A DNA stretch of 42,011 nucleotides from assembly GCA_964414825.1 (NCBI GenBank), contig CAYPZM010000001.1:1-42011 (forward strand), in the 5' to 3' direction. The notes under the pieces are model-generated. The model searched no databases and was not told the DNA's origin. It saw only the letters and a list, made by a program, of their open reading frames with translations. The position numbers and the translations under genes were made by a program. This document shows, piece after piece, positions 9,334 to 35,146 of the stretch; the stretch's first letter is position 1, and each line of letters opens with the position of its first letter. The DNA comes from an uncultured Cytophagia bacterium (lineage in GTDB: Bacteria > Zhuqueibacterota > Zhuqueibacteria > Residuimicrobiales > Krinioviventaceae).

Positions 9334-9448
9334 TAACCCTGTCAAGGCTGTCGAAAAAGCTATAAACCAATTCATGCCTGGAAGGCAGGTATCTATAAAT
9401 CCTTTAAAAATTGACTCCCACCTCCGCGCAAGTGACTTGGAGGGTTTA
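9334..9448 (+). mobile_element. Internally deleted copy of a MITE-like palindromic repeat (same family as 31974-32306)
   Basis: The termini are TAACCCT...AGGGTTTA. CTGTCGAAAAAGC occurs at 9348-9360. The segment 9346-9419 aligns to the reverse complement of about 32227-32300. The segment 9413-9440 (GACTCCCACCTCCGCGCAAGTGACTTGG) aligns to the reverse complement of 32016-32040. Confidence 0.6.
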
Positions 9449-12112: not shown

Positions 12113-13642
12113 ATGGAAAAAAGTATCGTTATCAACGTGTCTCTGGGTGAGACACGAATAGCAATTTTAGAAGATAGAGCTCTGGTGGAGTTGTATTACG
12201 AACTTCCCGAACAAGAGCGAATGGTGGGGGATATTTATTACGGCAAAGTTGCCAAAGTGGTCAAGGGACTGCAAGCCGCGTTTATTGATATTGGCAAAAA
12301 GCAGGATGCGTTCTTGCATTTTTCGGATTTGGATGACCGCTTGATCGGTTTTGATCCGCACGCCAAAAACGGTGAGCAATTTCCAAAATATCGCCGTGGC
12401 CGTTGGGGTCACGACGAGGTGCCCATCAAGCGCGGGGATGATATTTTGGTGCAAATCACCAAAGAACCCATGGCGCAAAAGGGTGCTCGCATCACTTCCT
12501 CTATTTCTATAGCAGGACGGTTTTTGGTGCTCATCCCTAATGACAGAATGGTTGGCGTGTCACGCAAATTGCATAACCGTAAAGAAAAATATCGGTTGAA
12601 AAAAATTGGCCGAGCAATTTGTCCCGAAGGATTTGGACTGGTAATCCGTACCGTTGCCGAAGGGCGCGATGAAGAATCGCTAAAAGCGGATTTGGATTAT
12701 TTGCTGAAAAAATGGGACCTATTGGTCAAGACCATGAAAACCGTCAAACCGCCGCATTTGGTGCACAAAGAATCGGGCATGTTATCGACCGTAATTCGCG
12801 ATTTGTTCACGTCCGATATTAGCAAGCTTGTGGTGGACAGTCGCAAATTGCATCGGGAAATTGTAAAATACTTGCGCGAGGTATCACCGCAACTGGTGGA
12901 CCGGGTCATTCTGCATCAGAAAAAAGTCCCAGTGTTTGACGAGTTTAGCATCGAAGCGCAAATTACCAAAAGCTTGGCGCGCAAAGTGTGGCTCAAACGC
13001 GGCGGGTATATCTTTATTGATCATACCGAAGCGTTGACCGCTATTGATGTTAATAGCGGACGATTTAGCGGCAAAGCCAGTCACGACATCAACAGCCTAA
13101 AGATAAACTTGGACGCCGGCAAAGAGATTGCCCGCCAATTGCGACTGCGCGATATCGGTGGCATTATCATCATCGATTTTATCGATATGGTGGATGCGAG
13201 AAACCGCCAACGTTTGGTAGAAGATTTCAAACGCGAGTTGCGCAAGGATCGGTCCCAAGTCAACATTACGCCGCTGTCCGAGTTCGGCATCATTGAAATG
13301 ACCCGGGAACGCGTGCGCCCGGCGTTGTTGTATTCGATAAGCGAGCCGTGCACAGCGTGTATGGGGACAGGACGGATTATTTCCAAATCCACTATTGCTG
13401 CACGAATCGAGCGCTGGATTAAACGCTATCGCAGCGAAAGCGGTGAGCGCAGTTTGCAGCTTGTGGTGCACCCCGAGCTGGCGAAATATTTGGCGCACGG
13501 GTACCGCAGTTTGATTCGCCGCTTTAGCTGGAATTACTGGACGCGAATCAAATTGATTTCTGATGAGAACGTCAGTATGGATGAATTTCGCTTTTTCGAC
13601 AAAATGGGCGAAGAAGATATCACTGATAAATATATTTCTTGA
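12113..13642 (+). CDS. rng: Rne/Rng family ribonuclease (RNase G-like)
   Basis: The S1 domain reads GDIYYGKVAKVVKGLQAAFIDIG. The catalytic core reads GGYIFIDHTEALTAIDVNSG and GGIIIIDFIDM. A CTAC..G Zn-link-like motif is present. The 509-aa length fits RNase G, and a GAGGAG SD lies upstream. Confidence 0.9.
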   Translation: MEKSIVINVSLGETRIAILEDRALVELYYELPEQERMVGDIYYGKVAKVVKGLQAAFIDIGKKQDAFLHFSDLDDRLIGFDPHAKNGEQFPKYRRGRWGHDEVPIKRGDDILVQITKEPMAQKGARITSSISIAGRFLVLIPNDRMVGVSRKLHNRKEKYRLKKIGRAICPEGFGLVIRTVAEGRDEESLKADLDYLLKKWDLLVKTMKTVKPPHLVHKESGMLSTVIRDLFTSDISKLVVDSRKLHREIVKYLREVSPQLVDRVILHQKKVPVFDEFSIEAQITKSLARKVWLKRGGYIFIDHTEALTAIDVNSGRFSGKASHDINSLKINLDAGKEIARQLRLRDIGGIIIIDFIDMVDARNRQRLVEDFKRELRKDRSQVNITPLSEFGIIEMTRERVRPALLYSISEPCTACMGTGRIISKSTIAARIERWIKRYRSESGERSLQLVVHPELAKYLAHGYRSLIRRFSWNYWTRIKLISDENVSMDEFRFFDKMGEEDITDKYIS

Positions 13643-21722: not shown

Positions 21723-23150
21723 ATGGTAAAATTAGGTCAACATCTTAGCTTGCAAATGCGGCAATCACCACAGCAGGTGTTGCTATCGTCTTTACTGCAG
21801 CTTCCGATTATGAGTTTGGAACAGCGTCTATCAACCGAGCTTGAAATGAATCCATTGTTGGAATTGGATCAGGAGCAAGAACTCGAGCAAGAAATGGAAG
21901 AGATGCAGGATCAAAAACTTGAAGAAGAGGAAGTGGACGAAGACGAGGTTGCGGAAAAAGAGCAGGAACAGGAAAAAGATGAAATCGATTGGGATGAAAT
22001 TCTCAACGATGAGGATAATTACGAATTCCGATTGCCGCGCGATAAAAATGAAGAGGAAAATGAGCGCGTCGAAGTGTATCAGGAAAGCTTGACCGATCAT
22101 TTGTTAACCCAGTTGCACACGGCCGGTTTGTCGCCAGCCGAAGTGGTGGTGGGAGAATATATTATTTGGAATATCAATAACGTTGGTTATCTGGTAGCCG
22201 ACGTTGACACCATTGCCGAAAACCTGGAAGAAGACGTCGAAATTGTGGAACGGGTTCTGTGCGTCATTCAGACGTTTGATCCTCCGGGAATTGGCGCGCG
22301 CAATTTGCAAGAATGTTTGCTCATTCAACTGCTGCAACAAAATCCACAACACGAACTGGCCTCTCGTATGATTGCCGAGCATTTTGATGATTTCAAAAAC
22401 AGACGTTTCGAGCGCCTCTCCAAAGATATGATGATCGATCTGGATGCCGTCAAACGCACCATGGATTATATCACCAAACTCAATCCCAAACCTGGCGAAG
22501 GCTACTTGACGTTTGACAATCATTATATTGTGCCTGATATTGAAGTTCGAAAAGAAGATGGCGAGTTTAAAATTTCCATGCATGATTTTAATGTGCCGCA
22601 ACTTCGCATCAACAACCAATACAAAAAACTGATGCTCGATAAAAAGAACTCCAATGACGAGGCGCGCAAATATATCCGTCAAAAATTAGAGCAGGCGCGT
22701 TGGCTCATCAATTCCATTCATCAACGCCGCGCCACTATTTTGCGCACTATGGAAGCGATTATTGAAAAACAATACAACTTTTTCGACAAGGGTCCCGAGC
22801 ATCTCAAGCCCATGATTCTAAAGGATATTGCGGATGACATTGGCATGGATATTTCCACCATCAGCCGCGTGACCAATGGCAAATACGTGCAAACCGAATA
22901 TGGCGTGTTTGAACTGAAATATTTCTTTAGTGAAAAATACACGACCGATGAAGGAGAAGACGTTTCCAACAAAGCCGTAAAAGCCTTGATCAAAGAGATG
23001 ATCGATGCCGAACCGCCGAAAAAGCCGCTGAACGATCAAAAAATTTCCGAGATGCTCAAAGAAAAGGGTTACCCCGTGGCGCGGCGCACCGTGGCCAAAT
23101 ACCGAGAGCAAATGTCCATTCCGGTCGCTCGATTACGCCGACAAATTTAA
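21723..23150 (+). CDS. rpoN: RNA polymerase sigma-54 factor
   Basis: Region I is Gln/Leu-rich and region II is acidic. The C-terminus has an HTH and the RpoN box ARRTVAKYR. The canonical position after lptB also supports the call. Confidence 0.95.
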
Positions 23151-26106: not shown

Positions 26107-26145
26107 GCGCGTTTCCGTCTGTTTTTTCCTCGTTTCGCCGTTCTA

Positions 26146-26178
26146 GCGCGGAATGCAGGCCGTGCGCTCTGCGTCCAG
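26146..26178 (-). repeat. Fragment of the hairpin core of the MITE-like repeat family
   Basis: GCGCGGAATGCAGGCCGTGCGCTCTGCGTCCAG resembles the reverse complement of 32131-32169 (GCGGCGGAATGCAGTATAGGACGCTCTGCGTCCGA). Roughly 30 of 38 positions match by eye. Confidence 0.4.
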
Positions 26179-26265
26179 TCTCCTCATGATTCTTTCTTCG
26201 CGCCTCGCCTTTGCGTGAGGCGTTTGTCTTTTAAATCGAATTGAGTCCAACTATCCGGAGTTGCT

Positions 26266-30318: not shown

Positions 30319-31965
30319 ATGATGCTCAATTTGAATCGAAACGCCAAACTTGCCCTGTCATTACTGTTTGTTTTAATCACTTTCGCGTCCTCCCCTGCCC
30401 AGCAATCGGTGTATATCGATCCCACAAACAAAGACGATCCCTCGGAAAACGGCACGCTCGATCATCCCTATGATTCCTGGAACGACGTGCGGTTTGTTAA
30501 TGGCCGTAGTTACCTGCAAAAATGCGGCACCATCGACACGATTCGCGCCATCGAGTACAATGTCGATAATCTCACCTTTGGTTCGTACGGCAGCGGCGCC
30601 AAACCCAAGATTTTTTGTCAAACAAAATCGGGAGAACATGCCTTTAAAGGGTACAGCAAAGACAATATCACGTTTCGAAATCTGGAAATTTTTACCAACG
30701 GCAATGGCGTGAGCTGTATCTATTTTAACGCCAACTGCACCGGCGGTGTGGTGGATAGCTGTATTTTGCACAGCGCGTCGTGGGGCATCCGCATCACCAG
30801 TGGCGGTAACCGGAATCATCTCATCCAAAATACGGAAATTTATGACATCAAAGATGACGGCATATTTGTCCAGGACGCCACGGATATTGAAATCGCAAAT
30901 TGCTACATTCATCATGTGAATCAGAATTGGCAGCCGCCCAACACCCCGGAGAGCAGCGCGGCCGGCGATGGCATTCAGTTCGATCGCACGACGGATTGGT
31001 ACGTGCATCATAATCTCATCGACCGCAGCGATTCAGGCAATAAATTTTGTATTGTCGCTAATAATGAAAACCAAGATGGCTGCGTGCTGGAACACAATGT
31101 GTTCATTGGACCGCTAAAATCCCAACATGGCGGTGCGTGCGTTTATTTTGGCGATGGCCGCAATTTGATCGTTCGGTACAACACGTTTAAAGAAACCGAG
31201 CTTACCGGTCTTTATTATCACGCTGCTAATGTATCGATCTATGGGAATGTTTTTGACAATTTGGAGACCGCCATCTACTGCGGCACCACATCCGGGTGTG
31301 AGGTTTATCACAATGTATTTCAAGAGGTTAACCGGGCCATAATTGGCAATAATATCGTTGTAAAAAACAATATTTTTGATGTGGATGCCAGCAAAAGTTC
31401 TCTATTGCGCGTGTCCAAATTGGAGGACAGCCACAACCACTTTACTTTTGGCGATGGCGGTGAGCACGCGACATCCGGCGATCCGCTTTTTGTCGATCCG
31501 GCTAACGGCGATTTTCATTTGCAGCCCGGATCGCCTTGCATCAATGCCGGCACCGATGTGGGAATCGAAATGGACGCGGAGGGTACGGCAATTCCCCATG
31601 GTGAGGCTCCGGACATTGGCGCGTATGAGTTCAGCGATGCCAGTGCTCTCGGCGAGTACTCTGGTGGGGTACCCGTAGGGTTTTCGCTCTCACAAAACTA
31701 TCCCAATCCGTTTAATCCTAATACCACAATTGTCTATACCGTCCCACAACTCGATTTGAACGGAGTGAGGGTGACCCTGAACGTATATGATCTCCAGGGA
31801 CGTTTTGTGTGCACGCTAGTAGACGAGCAGCAAAATGCAGGAACGTTTACAGCGGTATTTAAAAGCACCGAACTGACCTCGGGCATTTACTTTTATCAGT
31901 TGTCGATTTGGCGCGATTCTTTGCAGCTTTTTTCCGAAACGAAATCTTGTGTTTTTATGAAATGA
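30319..31965 (+). CDS. Right-handed parallel beta-helix protein with T9SS C-terminal sorting domain
   Basis: It has a signal peptide and repeated PbH1-like turns (NITFRNLEI, VVDSCILH, HLIQNTEIYD, IEIANCYIHH, VLEHNVFIG, VRYNTFKE, SIYGNVFDN, EVYHNVFQE, VVKNNIFD). The C-terminus reads NYPNPFNPNTTIVYTVP...LNVYDLQGRFV...SGIYFYQL. An AAGGAG SD lies upstream. Confidence 0.8.
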   Translation: MMLNLNRNAKLALSLLFVLITFASSPAQQSVYIDPTNKDDPSENGTLDHPYDSWNDVRFVNGRSYLQKCGTIDTIRAIEYNVDNLTFGSYGSGAKPKIFCQTKSGEHAFKGYSKDNITFRNLEIFTNGNGVSCIYFNANCTGGVVDSCILHSASWGIRITSGGNRNHLIQNTEIYDIKDDGIFVQDATDIEIANCYIHHVNQNWQPPNTPESSAAGDGIQFDRTTDWYVHHNLIDRSDSGNKFCIVANNENQDGCVLEHNVFIGPLKSQHGGACVYFGDGRNLIVRYNTFKETELTGLYYHAANVSIYGNVFDNLETAIYCGTTSGCEVYHNVFQEVNRAIIGNNIVVKNNIFDVDASKSSLLRVSKLEDSHNHFTFGDGGEHATSGDPLFVDPANGDFHLQPGSPCINAGTDVGIEMDAEGTAIPHGEAPDIGAYEFSDASALGEYSGGVPVGFSLSQNYPNPFNPNTTIVYTVPQLDLNGVRVTLNVYDLQGRFVCTLVDEQQNAGTFTAVFKSTELTSGIYFYQLSIWRDSLQLFSETKSCVFMK

Positions 31966-31973
31966 GCTTGATC

Positions 31974-32306
31974 AAACCTCAGGAGGCTGTCGAAAAAGTC
32001 CCAAAAGCACGTTTCCCAAGTCACTCCCGCGGAGGTGGGCGTTGCAGATTCAAACGACACTCTCTCGTTCCCCCGCTCTGCGGGGGAATTGCAGCATGGA
32101 CGCTCGGCGTCCAGCACTTGTTGCGAGTTTCGGACGCAGAGCGTCCTATACTGCATTCCGCCGCGGGAGCGGCGGAATGAGAATGCTTGGACGGCCGATT
32201 CTGCAACAGCCTGGGAGGCGGGAGTCTATTTTTAGAGGAGTTATGGATGCCTGCCTCCGCAGGCCTGACTTGGCTTTTAGCTTTTTCGACAGTCTCCAGG
32301 GGTTTA
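31974..32306. mobile_element. Full-length MITE-like palindromic element with GC-rich four-hairpin core
   Basis: The arms are imperfect terminal inverted repeats of about 60 nt. A perfect 12-nt core, CTGTCGAAAAAG (31987-31998), pairs with CTTTTTCGACAG (32281-32292). The shared arm motif is CCAAGTCA...GCGGAGG..GGC. An inner pair is GTTGCAGATTC (32041-32051) with GATTCTGCAAC (32197-32207). Perfect stem-loops lie at 32068-32088, 32098-32112, 32132-32146 and 32155-32178. There is no convincing ORF. Related copies are at 9334-9448 and 26146-26178. Confidence 0.65.
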
Positions 32307-32321
32307 TAGGTGGAGGAAGTG

Positions 32322-33359
32322 ATGTTGAATAAAACGGAGCTGAATTCCCAAATTGATATTTTGACAGACAAGCCCCCGAATCCGTTTCACGTAAAAACCG
32401 GCTCTTGTTTTGCGGTTCATCATTCTTTGAAAAAGATAAGGTGTGTATTCTTTCTGCTTCTATTTTGCACATCCGTTCGAGCCAATGAGAGAATAGTAAT
32501 CTCTGACGTCCGGGACACCAACCTGTTTCTCACTGAACAAGGCCAACGAATCTCGCTGGCGAATGTGCAAACCATTTCTATAGCCGATCCCGATTCTTTT
32601 CGACAACAATTTGCCTTTGAGGTGCTAAAAAAGGTGGAAAAACGGCTGCTGAATCATTCCTATATAATGGAACTCGAACAGCACCACGATTCCCTGTCTC
32701 TGGTACATCTCTGGCAGCCGCTGCCCTTGGGACGGCAATCTATCAATAAAGAGTTTTTGAGCAAGGGTTGGGGTAGCTTTGTTCCGCTCCGGCCCAATAA
32801 TTGGACTCGAAAGTATGAAAAGGCTGCAAAAACGGCCCAGGGAAAAAATTATGGCTTGCACAATCCCGATAGATTCAAGCCGGTTGTTTTGCCAACAGCC
32901 GCGTTTTGGATAAATAGTGGGCTCGGTATAGGGGTGGCTACCGATCATCGCCGGAGCCGGCATAACAATACGGATTGCTATCTGCTGGATCCCTCTCTCA
33001 ATATTCGCAGAAATTGGTTTGTGTGGACCGGAGGACACGCATTTTCCGCACCCTATGGATTGGGTTCAGTACATCAGATGCGAACGTGGTATGCGTTGGC
33101 AGGAAAATCATTTTACGGAAAGCACATAGAAGCGGTGCTCTCGATAGGGCCGAATATGAACAAGTGGCGGTACAATACCGAAAGCGAGCGCGGTACTGTC
33201 ACGTCAAACTGGCTTCCCGGGGCGCACGTCAAGCTGCAAATTCTGGCGCATTTACCGGTTTTTATGGGATTCGGGCTCAGCTTTGACATGAACTTGAACA
33301 AGGACATCAGCTACTACATTGTATCTTTGAATTTGATTTTTGGCGGATGGAGCGAATAA
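32322..33359 (+). CDS. Hypothetical protein: degenerate SNase/thermonuclease-like domain plus Gly/aromatic-rich C-terminal region
   Basis: The hydrophobic segment is KKIRCVFFLLLFCTSVRA. The SNase-like layout reads VISDVRD.N.F.L...GQRISLANV......DPD...Q.AFE.LKK...LLNH...MELE.....LSLVHLW......SINKEFLSKGWGSF.......KYEKAAKTAQGKNYGLH. The GIDAPE-type catalytic motif is not recognisable. The start is uncertain: GTG 32310, ATG 32322 with a GGAGGA SD, or TTG 32427 just before the hydrophobic segment. Confidence 0.45.
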   Translation: MLNKTELNSQIDILTDKPPNPFHVKTGSCFAVHHSLKKIRCVFFLLLFCTSVRANERIVISDVRDTNLFLTEQGQRISLANVQTISIADPDSFRQQFAFEVLKKVEKRLLNHSYIMELEQHHDSLSLVHLWQPLPLGRQSINKEFLSKGWGSFVPLRPNNWTRKYEKAAKTAQGKNYGLHNPDRFKPVVLPTAAFWINSGLGIGVATDHRRSRHNNTDCYLLDPSLNIRRNWFVWTGGHAFSAPYGLGSVHQMRTWYALAGKSFYGKHIEAVLSIGPNMNKWRYNTESERGTVTSNWLPGAHVKLQILAHLPVFMGFGLSFDMNLNKDISYYIVSLNLIFGGWSE

Positions 33360-33490
33360 TGGGGGTTAATAGGTCGCTTTAGTGTCTCATCCAAAATTTC
33401 CAACTCTTACGTAGAGCGGAATCGAAGGATTAACGAAACGCGTTTTTCCCCCCTCGACTCCGCCCGCGATTAAGGCCGTATTGTCGAACG

Positions 33491-33682
33491 CTAATGAAGA
33501 TATTTCTTGAGGTTGTATTTTTGCGCAACGCTCATTCGCTCTTCTTCGGGTAGCGCCGTCATATAGCCTTTCCATCCCGGACAAAAATTGATGTGCCATC
33601 GCCAAAACCAGCCGATAAATGATTTGGGATTGGTGTCGTATTTTGTCCGCATAGCGCAGTCTGCACATTTTTGCTCTTCCAT
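33491..33682 (-). CDS. Small conserved Cys-containing protein of unknown function (63 aa)
   Basis: The sequence is MEEQKCADCAMRTKYDTNPKSFIGWFWRWHINFCPGWKGYMTALPEEERMSVAQKYNLKKYLH. A strong AAGGAGAG SD precedes ATG 33682. I recall the WRWHINFCPGWK-type motif from small proteins of anaerobes, but this is unverified. Confidence 0.6.
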   Translation of the reverse strand: MEEQKCADCAMRTKYDTNPKSFIGWFWRWHINFCPGWKGYMTALPEEERMSVAQKYNLKKYLH

Positions 33683-34014
33683 GGTTCTCTCCTTTTTTTT
33701 GTTCGAAAAATCAATATACATAAAAATTTAAAAGGTTTCACTTGTTTTTCGCTTTTACCTATCAATAAAAAATCACCATAAAGCTGCAAGGGAAATGGAT
33801 TTATAAGTTAATTGAATGAATATTTACCTATTTTCAGTTGTTAGATCAATGTCATCTTTTTCACTCTTTCTCAAAAATCTGCTTTTTCATTGCACCATTC
33901 GAAATCCTTCAAAGGAGGTGATGTTCGTGCTGTTGCACTTACAGAGTCCATGATGTAAGATAGCAATGAATAAATCGCAAATTCAATTCAGGTAAATAAT
34001 GAGGAGGAAACAGC

Positions 34015-35106
34015 ATGAAGAATTGGGCATCCAAGTACTTGTTACTATTAGTTCTTTTTTTGAGTCCCGCACTGGTTAAATCTCAAGGCCTCATTGCACA
34101 TTGGAATTTTGAAGAAGGTTTGGGTTCGGTCGCGGTCGATTCCGTTAGCGGATACATCGCCGAATTTATGGTAAATGCGGATTGGGCCGGGCAGGGTAAA
34201 ATTGGCTCCAATGCCCTGTTTTTGGGCGGTGAAGGTGATTATGCACAAACTGATTTGATGGAAGATTTGCAATTTACGGATGCATTTACGGTATGCGCCT
34301 GGTTCAATACGGACGATACATTCGAAGCGCAGCACCACATCATTTGGGTAGGCGATAGTACCGGAAATGGATATGGGCCGGAACAAGAGTTTCACCTTTC
34401 CGTTGGGCATTTTAATTACGCGGACAAATTGGCCCTCAGTCATGGTGATGGTTTAGACACGGATGGTATGATCGTGAATATCATTACAGAGGAAGACTTT
34501 TTGGATACCTTTGTCTGGCACCATATCGCCGGTGTCGTCAAATATGTGGAGGGTGATACCAGTATGCTCACCATTGGAGAATTGTATCTCGATGGTGTGT
34601 GGCAAACGCCCATGGTACACGAATTTCCCACTCTCGATACGGTCTATTATGAAATCTTGCGCGATCAATGGAACAAACCCATGCGTTTTGGAGCACCAGG
34701 TGCGTTGGGCACGCGCCATTTTATTGGCATGATTGACGATGTGCAGATTTATGACCGCGCCCTTACCGCAGAAGAAATTATGACCGTAATGACCGGTGAA
34801 ACGATTGTTGGGGTCGAATCTCGGCCCAATCAATTGCCCAAGGGATACTCGTTATCGGACAATTATCCAAATCCGTTTAATCCGCAGACCAAAATATCGT
34901 ACACTCTTGCCTCGACCGATTATATCCGCTTGACGGTTTATGATCTGTTGGGTCGGCAAATTGAGCGATTGGTGAGCACTGTTCAAACGCCTGGCACTTA
35001 TACTGTTACGTTTGACGCGTCAGAGCTGCCTGGAGGAGTCTATCTTTATGAATTGCAGTTAGGAAATTCGTTCAAGGAAGTGAAAAAGATGGTTCTGATG
35101 AAATAG
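34015..35106 (+). CDS. LamG/concanavalin-A-like lectin domain protein with T9SS C-terminal sorting domain
   Basis: It has a signal peptide. The LamG_3-type pattern reads LIAHWNFEEG.GS.A.DSVSG....F......W...GKIG.NALFLGGEGDYA, FTVCAWF, HHIAGV and IDDVQIYDRALTAEEI. The C-terminus reads NYPNPFNPQTKISYTL...LTVYDLLGRQI...GTYTVTFDA..LPGGVYLYEL. Confidence 0.8.
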   Translation: MKNWASKYLLLLVLFLSPALVKSQGLIAHWNFEEGLGSVAVDSVSGYIAEFMVNADWAGQGKIGSNALFLGGEGDYAQTDLMEDLQFTDAFTVCAWFNTDDTFEAQHHIIWVGDSTGNGYGPEQEFHLSVGHFNYADKLALSHGDGLDTDGMIVNIITEEDFLDTFVWHHIAGVVKYVEGDTSMLTIGELYLDGVWQTPMVHEFPTLDTVYYEILRDQWNKPMRFGAPGALGTRHFIGMIDDVQIYDRALTAEEIMTVMTGETIVGVESRPNQLPKGYSLSDNYPNPFNPQTKISYTLASTDYIRLTVYDLLGRQIERLVSTVQTPGTYTVTFDASELPGGVYLYELQLGNSFKEVKKMVLMK

Positions 35107-35110
35107 GATC

Positions 35111-35146
35111 ATTGACCCGATCCCTCGCAGGGATCGGGTCAATTTA
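35111..35146. terminator. Bidirectional intrinsic terminator between convergent operons
   Basis: A perfect 14-bp stem pairs TTGACCCGATCCCT (35112-35125) with AGGGATCGGGTCAA (35129-35142) around a 3-nt loop. The flanks are A/T-rich on both sides. Confidence 0.75.

Follow-up and report, generated by a model that had tools for sequence, protein, structure and literature searches.

A modular intergenic palindrome with REP-like hairpins in DNA of a KSB1-related lineage

The 42,011-nucleotide stretch of DNA analysed here (the window) holds a long palindrome in the spacer downstream of a beta-helix/T9SS gene, and this locus raises the question whether such a sequence is a miniature transposon, a structured RNA or a repeat of another kind. 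The initial annotation had described it as a MITE-like element and had named a structured RNA or a REP-like module as alternatives. We compared the element with its relatives and weighed these readings against each other.

Position, folding and parts of the element

Inspection of the sequence and an inverted-repeat scan showed that the element, which we named copy A, is a non-coding, hierarchical palindrome of 335 bp (window positions 31972-32306, + strand) and the top-ranked inverted repeat across the entire 42-kb window. It lies between two co-directional genes. The upstream beta-helix/T9SS gene ends with a stop codon at 31965, and the downstream gene likely starts with the ATG at 32313, preceded by a ribosome-binding site (GGAGG, 32302-32306). 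The block between them is non-coding, as had been assumed. The short open reading frames on both strands are artefacts of its GC-rich palindromic sequence, given that all six reading frames are open and that the copies do not differ from one another in a synonymous-biased manner. A coding role was rejected on these grounds. The minimum free energy of the predicted RNA was -192.5 kcal/mol for the + strand (z = -13.1) and -181.6 kcal/mol for the - strand (z = -13.3), and none of 100 shuffled sequences equalled the native energy. Folding as single-stranded DNA yielded -99.2 kcal/mol (z = -12.1), while the core module folded on its own gave z = -9.7 and -10.4. The structure of copy A far exceeds chance.

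The arms, the long-range pair and the four hairpins that the initial annotation had listed for 31974-32306 were all recovered where it had placed them (all positions refer to the + strand). The left outer arm L1 (AAACCTCAGGAGGCTGTCGAAAAAG, 31974-31998) is 88% complementary over 25 nt to the right outer arm R1 (CTTTTTCGACAGTCTCCAGGGGTTT, 32281-32305), with which it forms an inverted repeat; R1 is conserved in the family, and an alignment of the copies showed L1 to be conserved in those at loci L021, L059 and L075. A second outer pair of 25 nt (32016-32040 and 32249-32273) is 80% complementary. Together, the terminal arms of copy A reach about 70 nt and are interrupted by a single asymmetric bulge, which corresponds to a spacer found in the left arm only (TCCCAAAAGCACGTTTC, 31999-32015) and amounts to about 10 nt against the right arm. 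Arm-against-arm alignment revealed that the four full copies all share this asymmetry. Further inwards, the frame motif CCAAGTCA (32016-32023) pairs with its partner TGACTTGG (32266-32273). The former was invariant in six of six aligned copies, and the pairs of the frame were retained in 91% of cells. The frame encloses two REP-like hairpins: REP1 (ACTCCCGC-GGAG-GTGGGC, also written ACTCCCGC-GGAG-GCGGGAGT; 32023-32040), the local pairs of which were retained in 97% of cells, and its inverted copy REP2 (ATGCCTGC-CTCC-GCAGGCCT, also written ATGCCTGC-CTCC-GCAGGCAT; 32247-32266).

Between REP1 and REP2 lies a GC-rich core module (32041-32207; inverted repeats I1, I4, I9 and I14), the ends of which, GTTGCAGATTC (32041-32051) and GATTCTGCAAC (32197-32207), form a long-range pair matched at 10 of 11 positions. 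The core carries four hairpins of 15-26 nt. Hairpins 1 (TTCCCCCGC-tct-GCGGGGGAA, 32068-32088) and 4 (CATTCCGCCGC-ggga-GCGGCGGAATG, 32154-32179, with the perfect hairpin at 32155-32178) are 100% complementary, and hairpins 2 (GGACGC-tcg-GCGTCC, 32098-32112) and 3 (GGACGC-aga-GCGTCC, 32132-32146) have perfect stems. Since the hairpins also pair with each other, 1 with 4 and 2 with 3, the core is a palindrome of palindromes. Its conserved right end, GAGAAT..GCCGATT, follows hairpin 4; GAGCGGCGGAAYGAGAAT recurs in conserved form in L059 and L075, and also in a solo hairpin of L021 and next to a further copy, E. Downstream of the core, the 3' half of REP1 occurs a second time (GGAGGCGGGAGTC, 32214-32226, a direct repeat of 32031-32040), and the spacer module M (GGGAGTCTATTTTTAGAGGAGTTATGG, 32220-32246) is shared at 84-89% with copies B, L021 and E; L059 and L075 lack it. 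At the position of the REP1 3' half, GGAGG(C/T)GGGAG occurs just once in B, L021 and E, while copy A has the core between two copies of it.

Related copies and exchange of modules

The proposal that the element belongs to a dispersed family, with further copies at 9334-9448 and 26146-26178, was largely borne out, as related copies were independently recovered in four assemblies. BLAST and nhmmer (E = 3.5e-35) identified the former stretch as a genuine copy on the opposite strand. This copy B (115 bp, 9334-9448, - strand) is located between the terminator of a POR gene and a radical-SAM gene. It consists of the shell only, lacking the core, and has lost one outer arm to deletion. Positions 32214-32292 of A align with 9425-9348 of B at 85% identity (E = 8e-10 to 3e-19), and 32016-32039 with 9440-9417 at 92%. 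The stretch at 26146-26178 is indeed related, yet it is a relic that retains only core hairpins 3 and 4 in degenerate form (about 26129-26176, - strand; alignment over 50 nt), situated after an ornithine carbamoyltransferase gene. Its Smith-Waterman score of 36 compares with a maximum of 30 among 514 other tiles of the window and was reached by none of 1000 shuffles. A motif count found CTGTCGAAAAAG, at no more than one mismatch, five times versus 0.24 expected.

Three additional copies were detected in the candidate division KSB1 MAG Zod_Metabat.31 (JAFGKD01; a count of exact-pattern hits only) and one in a syntenic relative, and a distant relative turned up on an ENA contig. The family comprises at least seven loci of 115-335 bp in at least three to four organisms, with two copies and one relic in the 42 kb of the window and a single copy in roughly 48 kb from the L085/L094 organism. 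It was nearly absent from 5.8 billion predicted proteins and from a JGI metagenome scan, in which all five pattern matches were due to chance, as were all four in IMG/VR. No match to the element emerged from BLASTN searches of plasmids, phages and E. coli genomes, and a HMMER search of the translated element against 1.84 billion representative proteins returned a single match, a spurious protein composed of REP-like units. The family may be small, in contrast to classical REPs with hundreds of copies.

Every copy is intergenic and at a non-orthologous site, both orientations are represented, and four copies begin 7-20 nt past a stop codon. Copies from different species share 85-90% identity (up to 96% over 57 nt), compared with 74-78% for syntenic DNA, which is mostly coding. 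The occurrence at non-orthologous sites in three species, combined with a similarity above that of the surrounding genes, calls for ongoing propagation, horizontal spread or sequence constraint. Comparison with close relatives revealed presence/absence differences. In L083 (about 90% nucleotide identity), some 310 bp of copy A are missing from the orthologous site; both flanking genes are present, and the operon has a 40-nt spacer without the element. This 'empty' site retains the first 11 nt of L1 plus 2 nt of flank (TCAAACCTCAG), as well as a AGACTTGT stretch that, aligned by eye, matches the arm consensus at 15 of 17 positions. The difference may thus have arisen by deletion in L083 instead of insertion in the window, so that recent mobility is not proven. 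Copy B is absent from the syntenic relative L085, which possibly retains a terminal remnant at its own 'empty' site.

Alignment of six copies (alignment A2) showed that the modules L1, L2, core, M, R2 and R1 occur in differing combinations, with CCAAGTCACT..CGCG.AG invariant throughout. The conserved unit is the inverted doublet of REP1 and REP2 inside the CCAAGTCA...TGACTTGG frame, which is extended outward by longer inverted arms (AAACCTCnGGAGRCTGTCGAAAAAG). The spacer of the doublet is exchangeable: B, L021 and E carry a 27-nt AT-rich piece, L059 and L075 a GC-rich hairpin core, and copy A both. The four-hairpin core is thus a separable module, which the initial annotation had overlooked. 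It is absent in B, L021 and E, and in L059 and L075 other sequence takes its place between conserved core ends. Conservation was highest in the interior of the element and lowest at its termini. The local REP hairpins were paired in 94% of cells and the long REP1:REP2 stem in 85%. Compensatory pairs (two in REP2, one in the long stem) all stemmed from L097, the one divergent sequence to which the covariation set of five effectively amounts, and 22 of 500 shuffles reached the observed value. In core hairpin 4, comparison with L001 revealed an exchange of GCC/GGC for CAC/GTG.

Nature of the element and competing explanations

We consider it probable that copy A is a member of a small, non-autonomous family of extragenic palindromes of the REP or REPIN-BIME type, specific to the KSB1-related lineage. 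The inverted REP-like doublet in an invariant frame places the REP-like module, raised initially as an alternative, closest to the evidence, and the element is MITE-like only loosely. It is a fresh example of a well-known class of bacterial intergenic repeats, not a new class. As had been assumed, no transposase adjoins it in the window; a Y1_Tnp or other transposase domain was found neither in the window nor beside the copies, and no RAYT, other HUH gene or transposase was seen in about 150 kb of DNA from the lineage. No GTAG-type head was seen adjoining the hairpins. As anticipated, no known Rfam family matched at the gathering score across the window, and a search at E up to 10 over 31850-32450 returned chance-level hits only (E >= 0.1, bit scores far under the cut-offs).

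The element would spread, or would have spread in the past, in trans as a single-stranded hairpin substrate. The enzyme acting on it would be the product of a gene at another site of the genome, most likely a RAYT or an IS200-IS605-like HUH tyrosine transposase. Insertion would proceed without target-site duplication and would favour intergenic DNA right after stop codons. Within an operon spacer, the element would be co-transcribed and form a very stable stem-loop, which may incidentally keep 3' exonucleases off the upstream mRNA or reduce read-through. Such an effect on expression would be a by-product and not the raison d'être of the element.

A rather unlikely reading is that copy A represents a classical MITE, namely a deletion derivative of an insertion sequence with a DDE transposase, moved via terminal inverted repeats of the arm consensus, with the REP-like hairpins as passenger sequence or nested insertions. 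This would account for the long terminal inverted arms (25 nt at 88%, extending to about 70 nt), which resemble MITE inverted repeats or ERIC more than REPINs, and it would fit the small size, the lack of coding capacity and the dispersed intergenic copies. Moreover, a different palindrome of 87 bp (L085 9655-9741), with the termini TAAAACCTCA/TGAGGTTTTA, shares the terminal 8-mer of the family and is missing from the orthologous site of the window. It is flanked by a direct repeat of 8-10 bp, indicating that the lineage does have MITEs of the cut-and-paste type with this end sequence. The same duplication test (direct repeat of 4 nt or more if exact, of 7 nt or more if one mismatch was allowed) was positive for this palindrome, yet it detected no target-site duplication within +/-6 nt of the termini in any of the four full copies (A, L021, L059 and L075). 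A 3-bp duplication in a palindromic target (AAACCT-nnn-AGGTTT) was rejected as too weak: the central base was directly repeated in three of four copies (p ~0.05). The core of copy A is bracketed by a direct repeat of 9-10 nt (GGAGGTGGG / GGAGGCGGG) that could be the duplication of a nested insertion, but these repeats do not abut the inverted ends, being off by 1 nt on the left and 6 nt on the right. Loss of the outer arms in B and E, with an interior conserved at 84-89%, is the opposite of what would be expected for transposase-binding ends. No partner insertion sequence was found among the fetched loci or in plasmid or phage records, and in none of the fetched loci did isolated arms bracket a transposase. 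In its strict sense, the MITE claim was therefore not upheld: the duplication was not found, nor, in the loci and records covered, a same-ended autonomous partner, and the interior is best conserved.

Two further readings appear improbable to us. According to the first, the copies would be decaying, immobile relics of ancient repeats, vertically inherited and eroded by deletion, with no present activity or function. The truncation of B and E, the mere relic at 26129-26176, the terminal remnants apparently kept at the 'empty' site of L083 and possibly at that of L085, the complementarity of the arms of just 80-88% and the rarity of the family in public data are all in line with decay. However, non-orthologous copies in three species are more alike than their surrounding genes. 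In addition, this scenario describes a present state that is compatible with a REP or REPIN-BIME element, and it offers no true alternative on the nature of the sequence. According to the second, the family would be more than selfish DNA: a lineage-specific element under sequence constraint in KSB1-related species (85-96% identity, against 74-78% for neighbouring genes) would have been set beside a short retained motif, TCAAACC.., by an undescribed duplication-free route. Its RNA or DNA structure would then have an intercistronic role behind genes that encode T9SS-secreted proteins, such as those that precede three of the four full copies.

A structured non-coding or cis-regulatory RNA under host selection, e.g., an intercistronic stability element for T9SS-cargo operons, seems highly improbable. 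The extreme folding (z = -13), the few compensatory pairs and the interspecies identity above that of syntenic DNA would suit such an RNA. Co-directional genes flank five of six copies, which would thus be transcribed, and in three of the four full copies the preceding gene ends with a T9SS sorting domain. On the other hand, the copies point either way relative to the flanking genes, the two strands fold equally well, and mismatches in the arms favour neither strand (14 G·U on one versus 19 on the other, 27 non-wobble), which spoke against the structured-RNA alternative of the initial annotation. Further evidence against an RNA came from the gain, loss or swapping of entire modules among copies, from the L083 operon, which works with its 40-nt spacer, from the ordinary terminators at other T9SS genes and from the missing Rfam match. 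An intrinsic terminator was dismissed because a U-tract is lacking 3' of the stem; a landing motif downstream of T9SS genes, because other such genes have ordinary terminators and the upstream genes are paralogues of 33% identity; a retron or an IS110 or IS605 guide RNA, because no reverse transcriptase, transposase or TnpB is nearby; and an integron attC site, because L083 lacks only the palindrome and keeps the flanking genes, no integrase is present, and B is flanked by syntenic housekeeping genes.

Relation to known repeats

Interspersed palindromic repeats such as REP, REPIN, BIME, ERIC and MITE are well known in Proteobacteria. To our knowledge, REPINs have not been described in the little-studied KSB1-related lineage, and no description of such repeats in candidate phyla like KSB1 was found in a literature search on the arm motif and on KSB1 in combination with MITE. 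If copy A is a REP- or REPIN-BIME-type element, as we favour, REPINs provide the closest template: they consist of two inverted REPs with a variable, hairpin-forming spacer, are extragenic and show compensatory changes (Bertels & Rainey 2011; PMC3337134; PMC3116915). REPINs are mobilised by RAYTs, Y1/HUH transposases the genes of which are flanked by REPs of the same type; REP units measure about 20-60 bp and number tens to hundreds in a genome. The element likewise features two short, GC-rich, imperfect palindromes in inverted orientation, a spacer that varies but folds, an extragenic position without target-site duplication, and truncated singlets and relics alongside doublets; the few compensatory pairs noted above may be a further parallel. 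It differs from REPINs in its low known copy number, in the extra inverted arms of 25-70 nt outside the doublet and in the absence of sequence similarity to REPs of Pseudomonas or E. coli.

With the BIMEs of Enterobacteria, the element shares a mosaic of REP-type units in alternating orientation and of conserved non-palindromic motifs, in varying module combinations, and a position between cistrons or 3' of genes where it is likely transcribed; it has no sequence similarity to them, and its long outer inverted arms are lacking in BIMEs. ERIC/IRU sequences of Enterobacteria and Vibrio resemble it as imperfect palindromes of 100-150 bp in transcribed intergenic DNA, and their discrete internal block indels at fixed positions recall the shell-only versus shell-plus-core copies, although they are unrelated in sequence and the element has an interior of REP-like GC hairpins. 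Correia elements (CREE/NEMIS) of Neisseria, an example of bacterial MITEs, correspond to it in their terminal inverted repeats, their non-coding 100-350 bp dispersed near genes and their presence/absence between relatives. However, they duplicate a TA target and have defined inverted repeats of 26 bp, while no duplication was found for the element, the termini of which are its least conserved part.

The finding is incremental. The family offers a natural example of modular assembly from REP-like hairpins, with gain and loss between close relatives. Such repeats break assemblies, yield spurious ORF calls (P0123-P0126) and can alter operon expression. Discovery of a cognate HUH enzyme would carry the REPIN-RAYT relationship into a new phylum.

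The core with its four hairpins itself consists of REP-like hairpins, of a type that recurs across phyla. A solo core-type hairpin is present at L021 4636-4690, and another REP-like hairpin stands inverted beside copy E. Core-type units resemble those in the spurious repeat protein P0126 and those of a Methylococcaceae MAG, where a two-hairpin unit is collinear with core hairpins 3 and 4.

A palindromic repeat and its dispersed family

The strongest inverted repeat of the 42-kb window was located at 31972–32306 (plus strand, copy A), 3′ of the stop codon of a gene for a beta-helix protein with a T9SS sorting domain (30319–31965; Pfam Beta_helix, Por_Secre_tail). The likely ATG of the downstream gene lies at 32313, with a GGAGG site at 32302–32306; its 348-aa ORF (32313–33359), directly 3′ of copy A, has no Pfam domain and only two homologues among 5.8 billion proteins (90% and 52% identity, short ENA contigs). 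All sequence features that the initial annotation listed for 31974–32306 were recovered in the sequence and an inverted-repeat scan: an outer inverted repeat (31974–31998/32281–32305, 88%), a second one (32016–32040/32249–32273, 80%), the long-range pair GTTGCAGATTC/GATTCTGCAAC (32041–51/32197–207) and four perfect hairpins in the GC-rich core (32068–88, 32098–112, 32132–46 and 32155–78). Since hairpins 1 and 4 complement each other, as do hairpins 2 and 3, the core is a palindrome composed of palindromes. Folding as RNA yielded –192.5 and –181.6 kcal/mol on the two strands (z = –13.1 and –13.3 against dinucleotide shuffles), and folding as single-stranded DNA –99.2 kcal/mol (z = –12.1). We consider copy A to be probably a non-autonomous extragenic palindromic repeat of the REP or REPIN-BIME type, compound in that it carries an extra core of REP hairpins in its spacer. 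Elements of this kind are already known, while the host lineage is little studied.

The proposal of a dispersed family was borne out by additional copies in other genomes (a KSB1 MAG and ENA contigs). Within the window, the related copy at 9334–9448 (copy B) proved genuine, lying on the opposite strand with 85% identity over 79–82 nt (E down to 3e-19). It lacks the entire 174-nt core: a single GGAGGTGGGAG stands against GGAGGTGGGC-[core]-...GGAGGCGGGAG in copy A. The similarity at 26146–26178 likewise exceeded chance, but what remains at the locus is only a relic, 50 nt of degenerate sequence from core hairpins 3 and 4 (about 26129–26176, minus strand; score 36 versus a null maximum of 30, reached by none of 514 tiles and none of 1000 shuffles). 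This relic lies about 25 nt past the stop codon of the ornithine carbamoyltransferase gene, whose terminator-like hairpin (about 26205–26235) is just downstream. The arm motif TTGTCGAAAAAG recurred with one mismatch on the minus strand at 13591–13602 and 22778–22789, both within coding regions and probably by chance; all told, the window held 5 arm-motif matches versus 0.24 expected.

In 185,579 species genomes scanned by pattern, three matches proved real, all in the MAG of candidate division KSB1 bacterium Zod_Metabat.31, with chance matches about as numerous as estimated in advance. One of the three (L021, 150 bp) consists of the outer shell only; the others (L059, 220 bp; L075, 307 bp) carry another core, whose conserved ends are the same. 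Translating the single frame that is open through most copies and searching the 5.8-billion-protein collection with it for spurious ORFs recovered copy E, in the hemL–hemB spacer of ENA contigs L094–L096, and a distant relative (L097, nhmmer E = 9e-13). No family matches were found in the JGI metagenome scan, IMG/VR, plasmids, phages or E. coli genomes. The best named matches of the window's radical-SAM protein come from MAGs of KSB1 and Calditrichota; the closest relative is 77% identical.

All family copies are intergenic, five of six between co-directional genes, and they occur in both orientations relative to the flanking genes; four start 7–20 nt past a stop codon. Their sites are non-orthologous, the genes upstream of copy A and L075 being distant paralogues of only 33% identity. 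A T9SS C-terminal sorting domain (Por_Secre_tail) ends the upstream gene of three of the four full-length copies (window 30319–31965, L059 69–4202, L075 2987–5140). Other T9SS genes nearby have ordinary terminators, and the frequency of such genes in the lineage may by itself account for the association.

Modular anatomy and REP-like hairpins

The multiple alignment of family copies revealed a modular order: L1 (AAACCTCnGGAGRCTGTCGAAAAAG plus a bulge restricted to the left arm), L2 (CCAAGTCACTCCCGCGGAG, invariant in six copies), an optional core (GTTGCAGATTC ... GGGAGCGGCGGAAYGAGAAT..GCCGATT), an optional spacer M (GGGAGTCTATTTTTA..GAGTTATGG), R2 (CCTGCCTCCGCAGGCATGACTTGG) and R1, the right outer arm. 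Core and M were found together in copy A only. In its variable module combinations the family resembles BIMEs, and in its shell-only and shell-plus-insert versions it resembles ERIC elements.

In the L2...R2 portion, two short imperfect palindromes of high GC content make up an inverted doublet: REP1 (ACTCCCGC-GGAG-GCGGGAGT) and REP2 (ATGCCTGC-CTCC-GCAGGCAT), within a CCAAGTCA/TGACTTGG frame. This anatomy fits the published description of REPINs, in which two inverted REPs enclose a spacer of variable length and sequence that nevertheless forms a hairpin, and which are extragenic, show compensatory changes and are moved in trans by RAYTs (PMC3337134; PMC3116915). Across copies A, L021, E, B and L097, the local REP hairpins had 94% of cells paired and two compensatory pairs, both in REP2, versus 85% and one compensatory pair for the alternative long REP1:REP2 stem. 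The compensatory signal was matched or exceeded in 22 of 500 shuffles and, with five sequences, is only suggestive.

The hairpins of the core, too, are REP-like. The unit TCTCGTTCCSCCGC...GCGGSGGAAYGAGA occurs as a solo hairpin at L021 4636–4690, inverted beside copy E, and in the window relic. The pair of hairpins 3 and 4 (GGACGC...GCGTCC + CATTCCnnnGC...GCnnnGGAAyGA, window 32132–32182) is collinear with a two-hairpin unit of a Methylococcaceae MAG (L001 3620–3678; 80% over 60 nt, E = 8e-5), with a compensatory replacement of GCC/GGC by CAC/GTG in a stem. A search of 1.84 billion representative proteins returned a single match, P0126, a spurious 274-aa 'protein' read from tandem units of the two-hairpin kind. 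A related hairpin, ATTCCCGC-GAAG-GCGG.AAT, lies in a Syntrophaceae MAG (L065, about 1590–1615). These loci suggest a cross-phylum superfamily of REP-like hairpins. An element of the REPIN type would be a hairpin substrate mobilised by an enzyme acting in trans, most likely an HUH/RAYT-like one; between cistrons it could incidentally function as a stable stem-loop.

Gain or loss between relatives and alternative origins

An ENA contig (ERZ10759765, L083) matches window 32304–34061 and the final part of the upstream gene at about 90% identity, yet its two genes are separated by just 40 nt (gcttTCAAACCTCAGAGACTTGTAGGTGGAGG); about 310 bp of copy A are therefore absent there. The first 11 nt of copy A are kept, and the next stretch, AGACTTGT, matches the arm AAACCTCAGGAGRCTGT in 15/17 positions when aligned by eye; the right terminus and the TGACTTG of R2 are possible partners as well. 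What is kept may be either a target motif that survived insertion or what was left when an unstable palindrome was deleted. The syntenic contig L085, 74–78% identical to the window, lacks copy B and has a possible short terminal remnant, CTTGGGTTTGA, at its site. The two comparisons thus demonstrate that copies were either gained or lost between relatives.

That the element called 'MITE-like' in the initial annotation is a true DDE-type MITE appears rather unlikely. Some support for this reading comes from an 87-bp near-perfect palindrome, TAAAACCTCA...TGAGGTTTTA, directly past the POR-gene stop in L085 (9655–9741; ENA ERZ10759773 NODE_744). A direct repeat of 8–10 bp (AATGAAAT[G/T]T) flanks it, and the orthologous spacer in the window (syntenic position ~9199) lacks it, which makes a textbook MITE signature; three short contigs (L086–L088) break within it. 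Its terminal 8-mer is common to the copy A family, which keeps the classical MITE reading alive for the outer arms. However, the script that detected this duplication found none in any of the four full copies (A, L021, L059, L075), and the outer arms are the very parts missing from copies B and E, whose interiors remain 84–89% conserved.

Decay from a former element is improbable. Copies of the window organism, the L085/L094 organism (which we infer to be one because the contigs have samples in common and similar coverage) and the KSB1 MAG are 85–90% identical to each other, with one 57-nt stretch at 96%, whereas syntenic DNA of the window and L085 organisms is only 74–78% identical. Since the copies are not orthologous, such identity must stem from a constrained source that keeps propagating, from horizontal spread or from each copy being under constraint; a pure 'dead relic' reading fails above all to explain this pattern. 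Still less probable is the functional structured RNA that had been offered as an alternative: the arm-versus-arm alignments contain 14 G·U-type mismatches on one strand and 19 on the other, besides 27 non-wobble ones, and therefore favour neither strand as RNA, no U-tract follows the copy A stem and an Rfam search found nothing, all of which argues against an RNA gene or riboswitch-like element.

Further features downstream

A small minus-strand ORF is conserved in the window (33387–33668; 93 aa in its longest reading) and in L083 (1245–1436; called as 63 aa), with no Pfam match. Directly 3′ of a T9SS lectin-like gene (34015–35106), a perfect 15-bp stem at 35111–35143 (ATTGACCCGATCCCT-cgc-AGGGATCGGGTCAAT, then TTTAT) forms a hairpin of the usual intrinsic-terminator-like type, with no relation to the repeat family.
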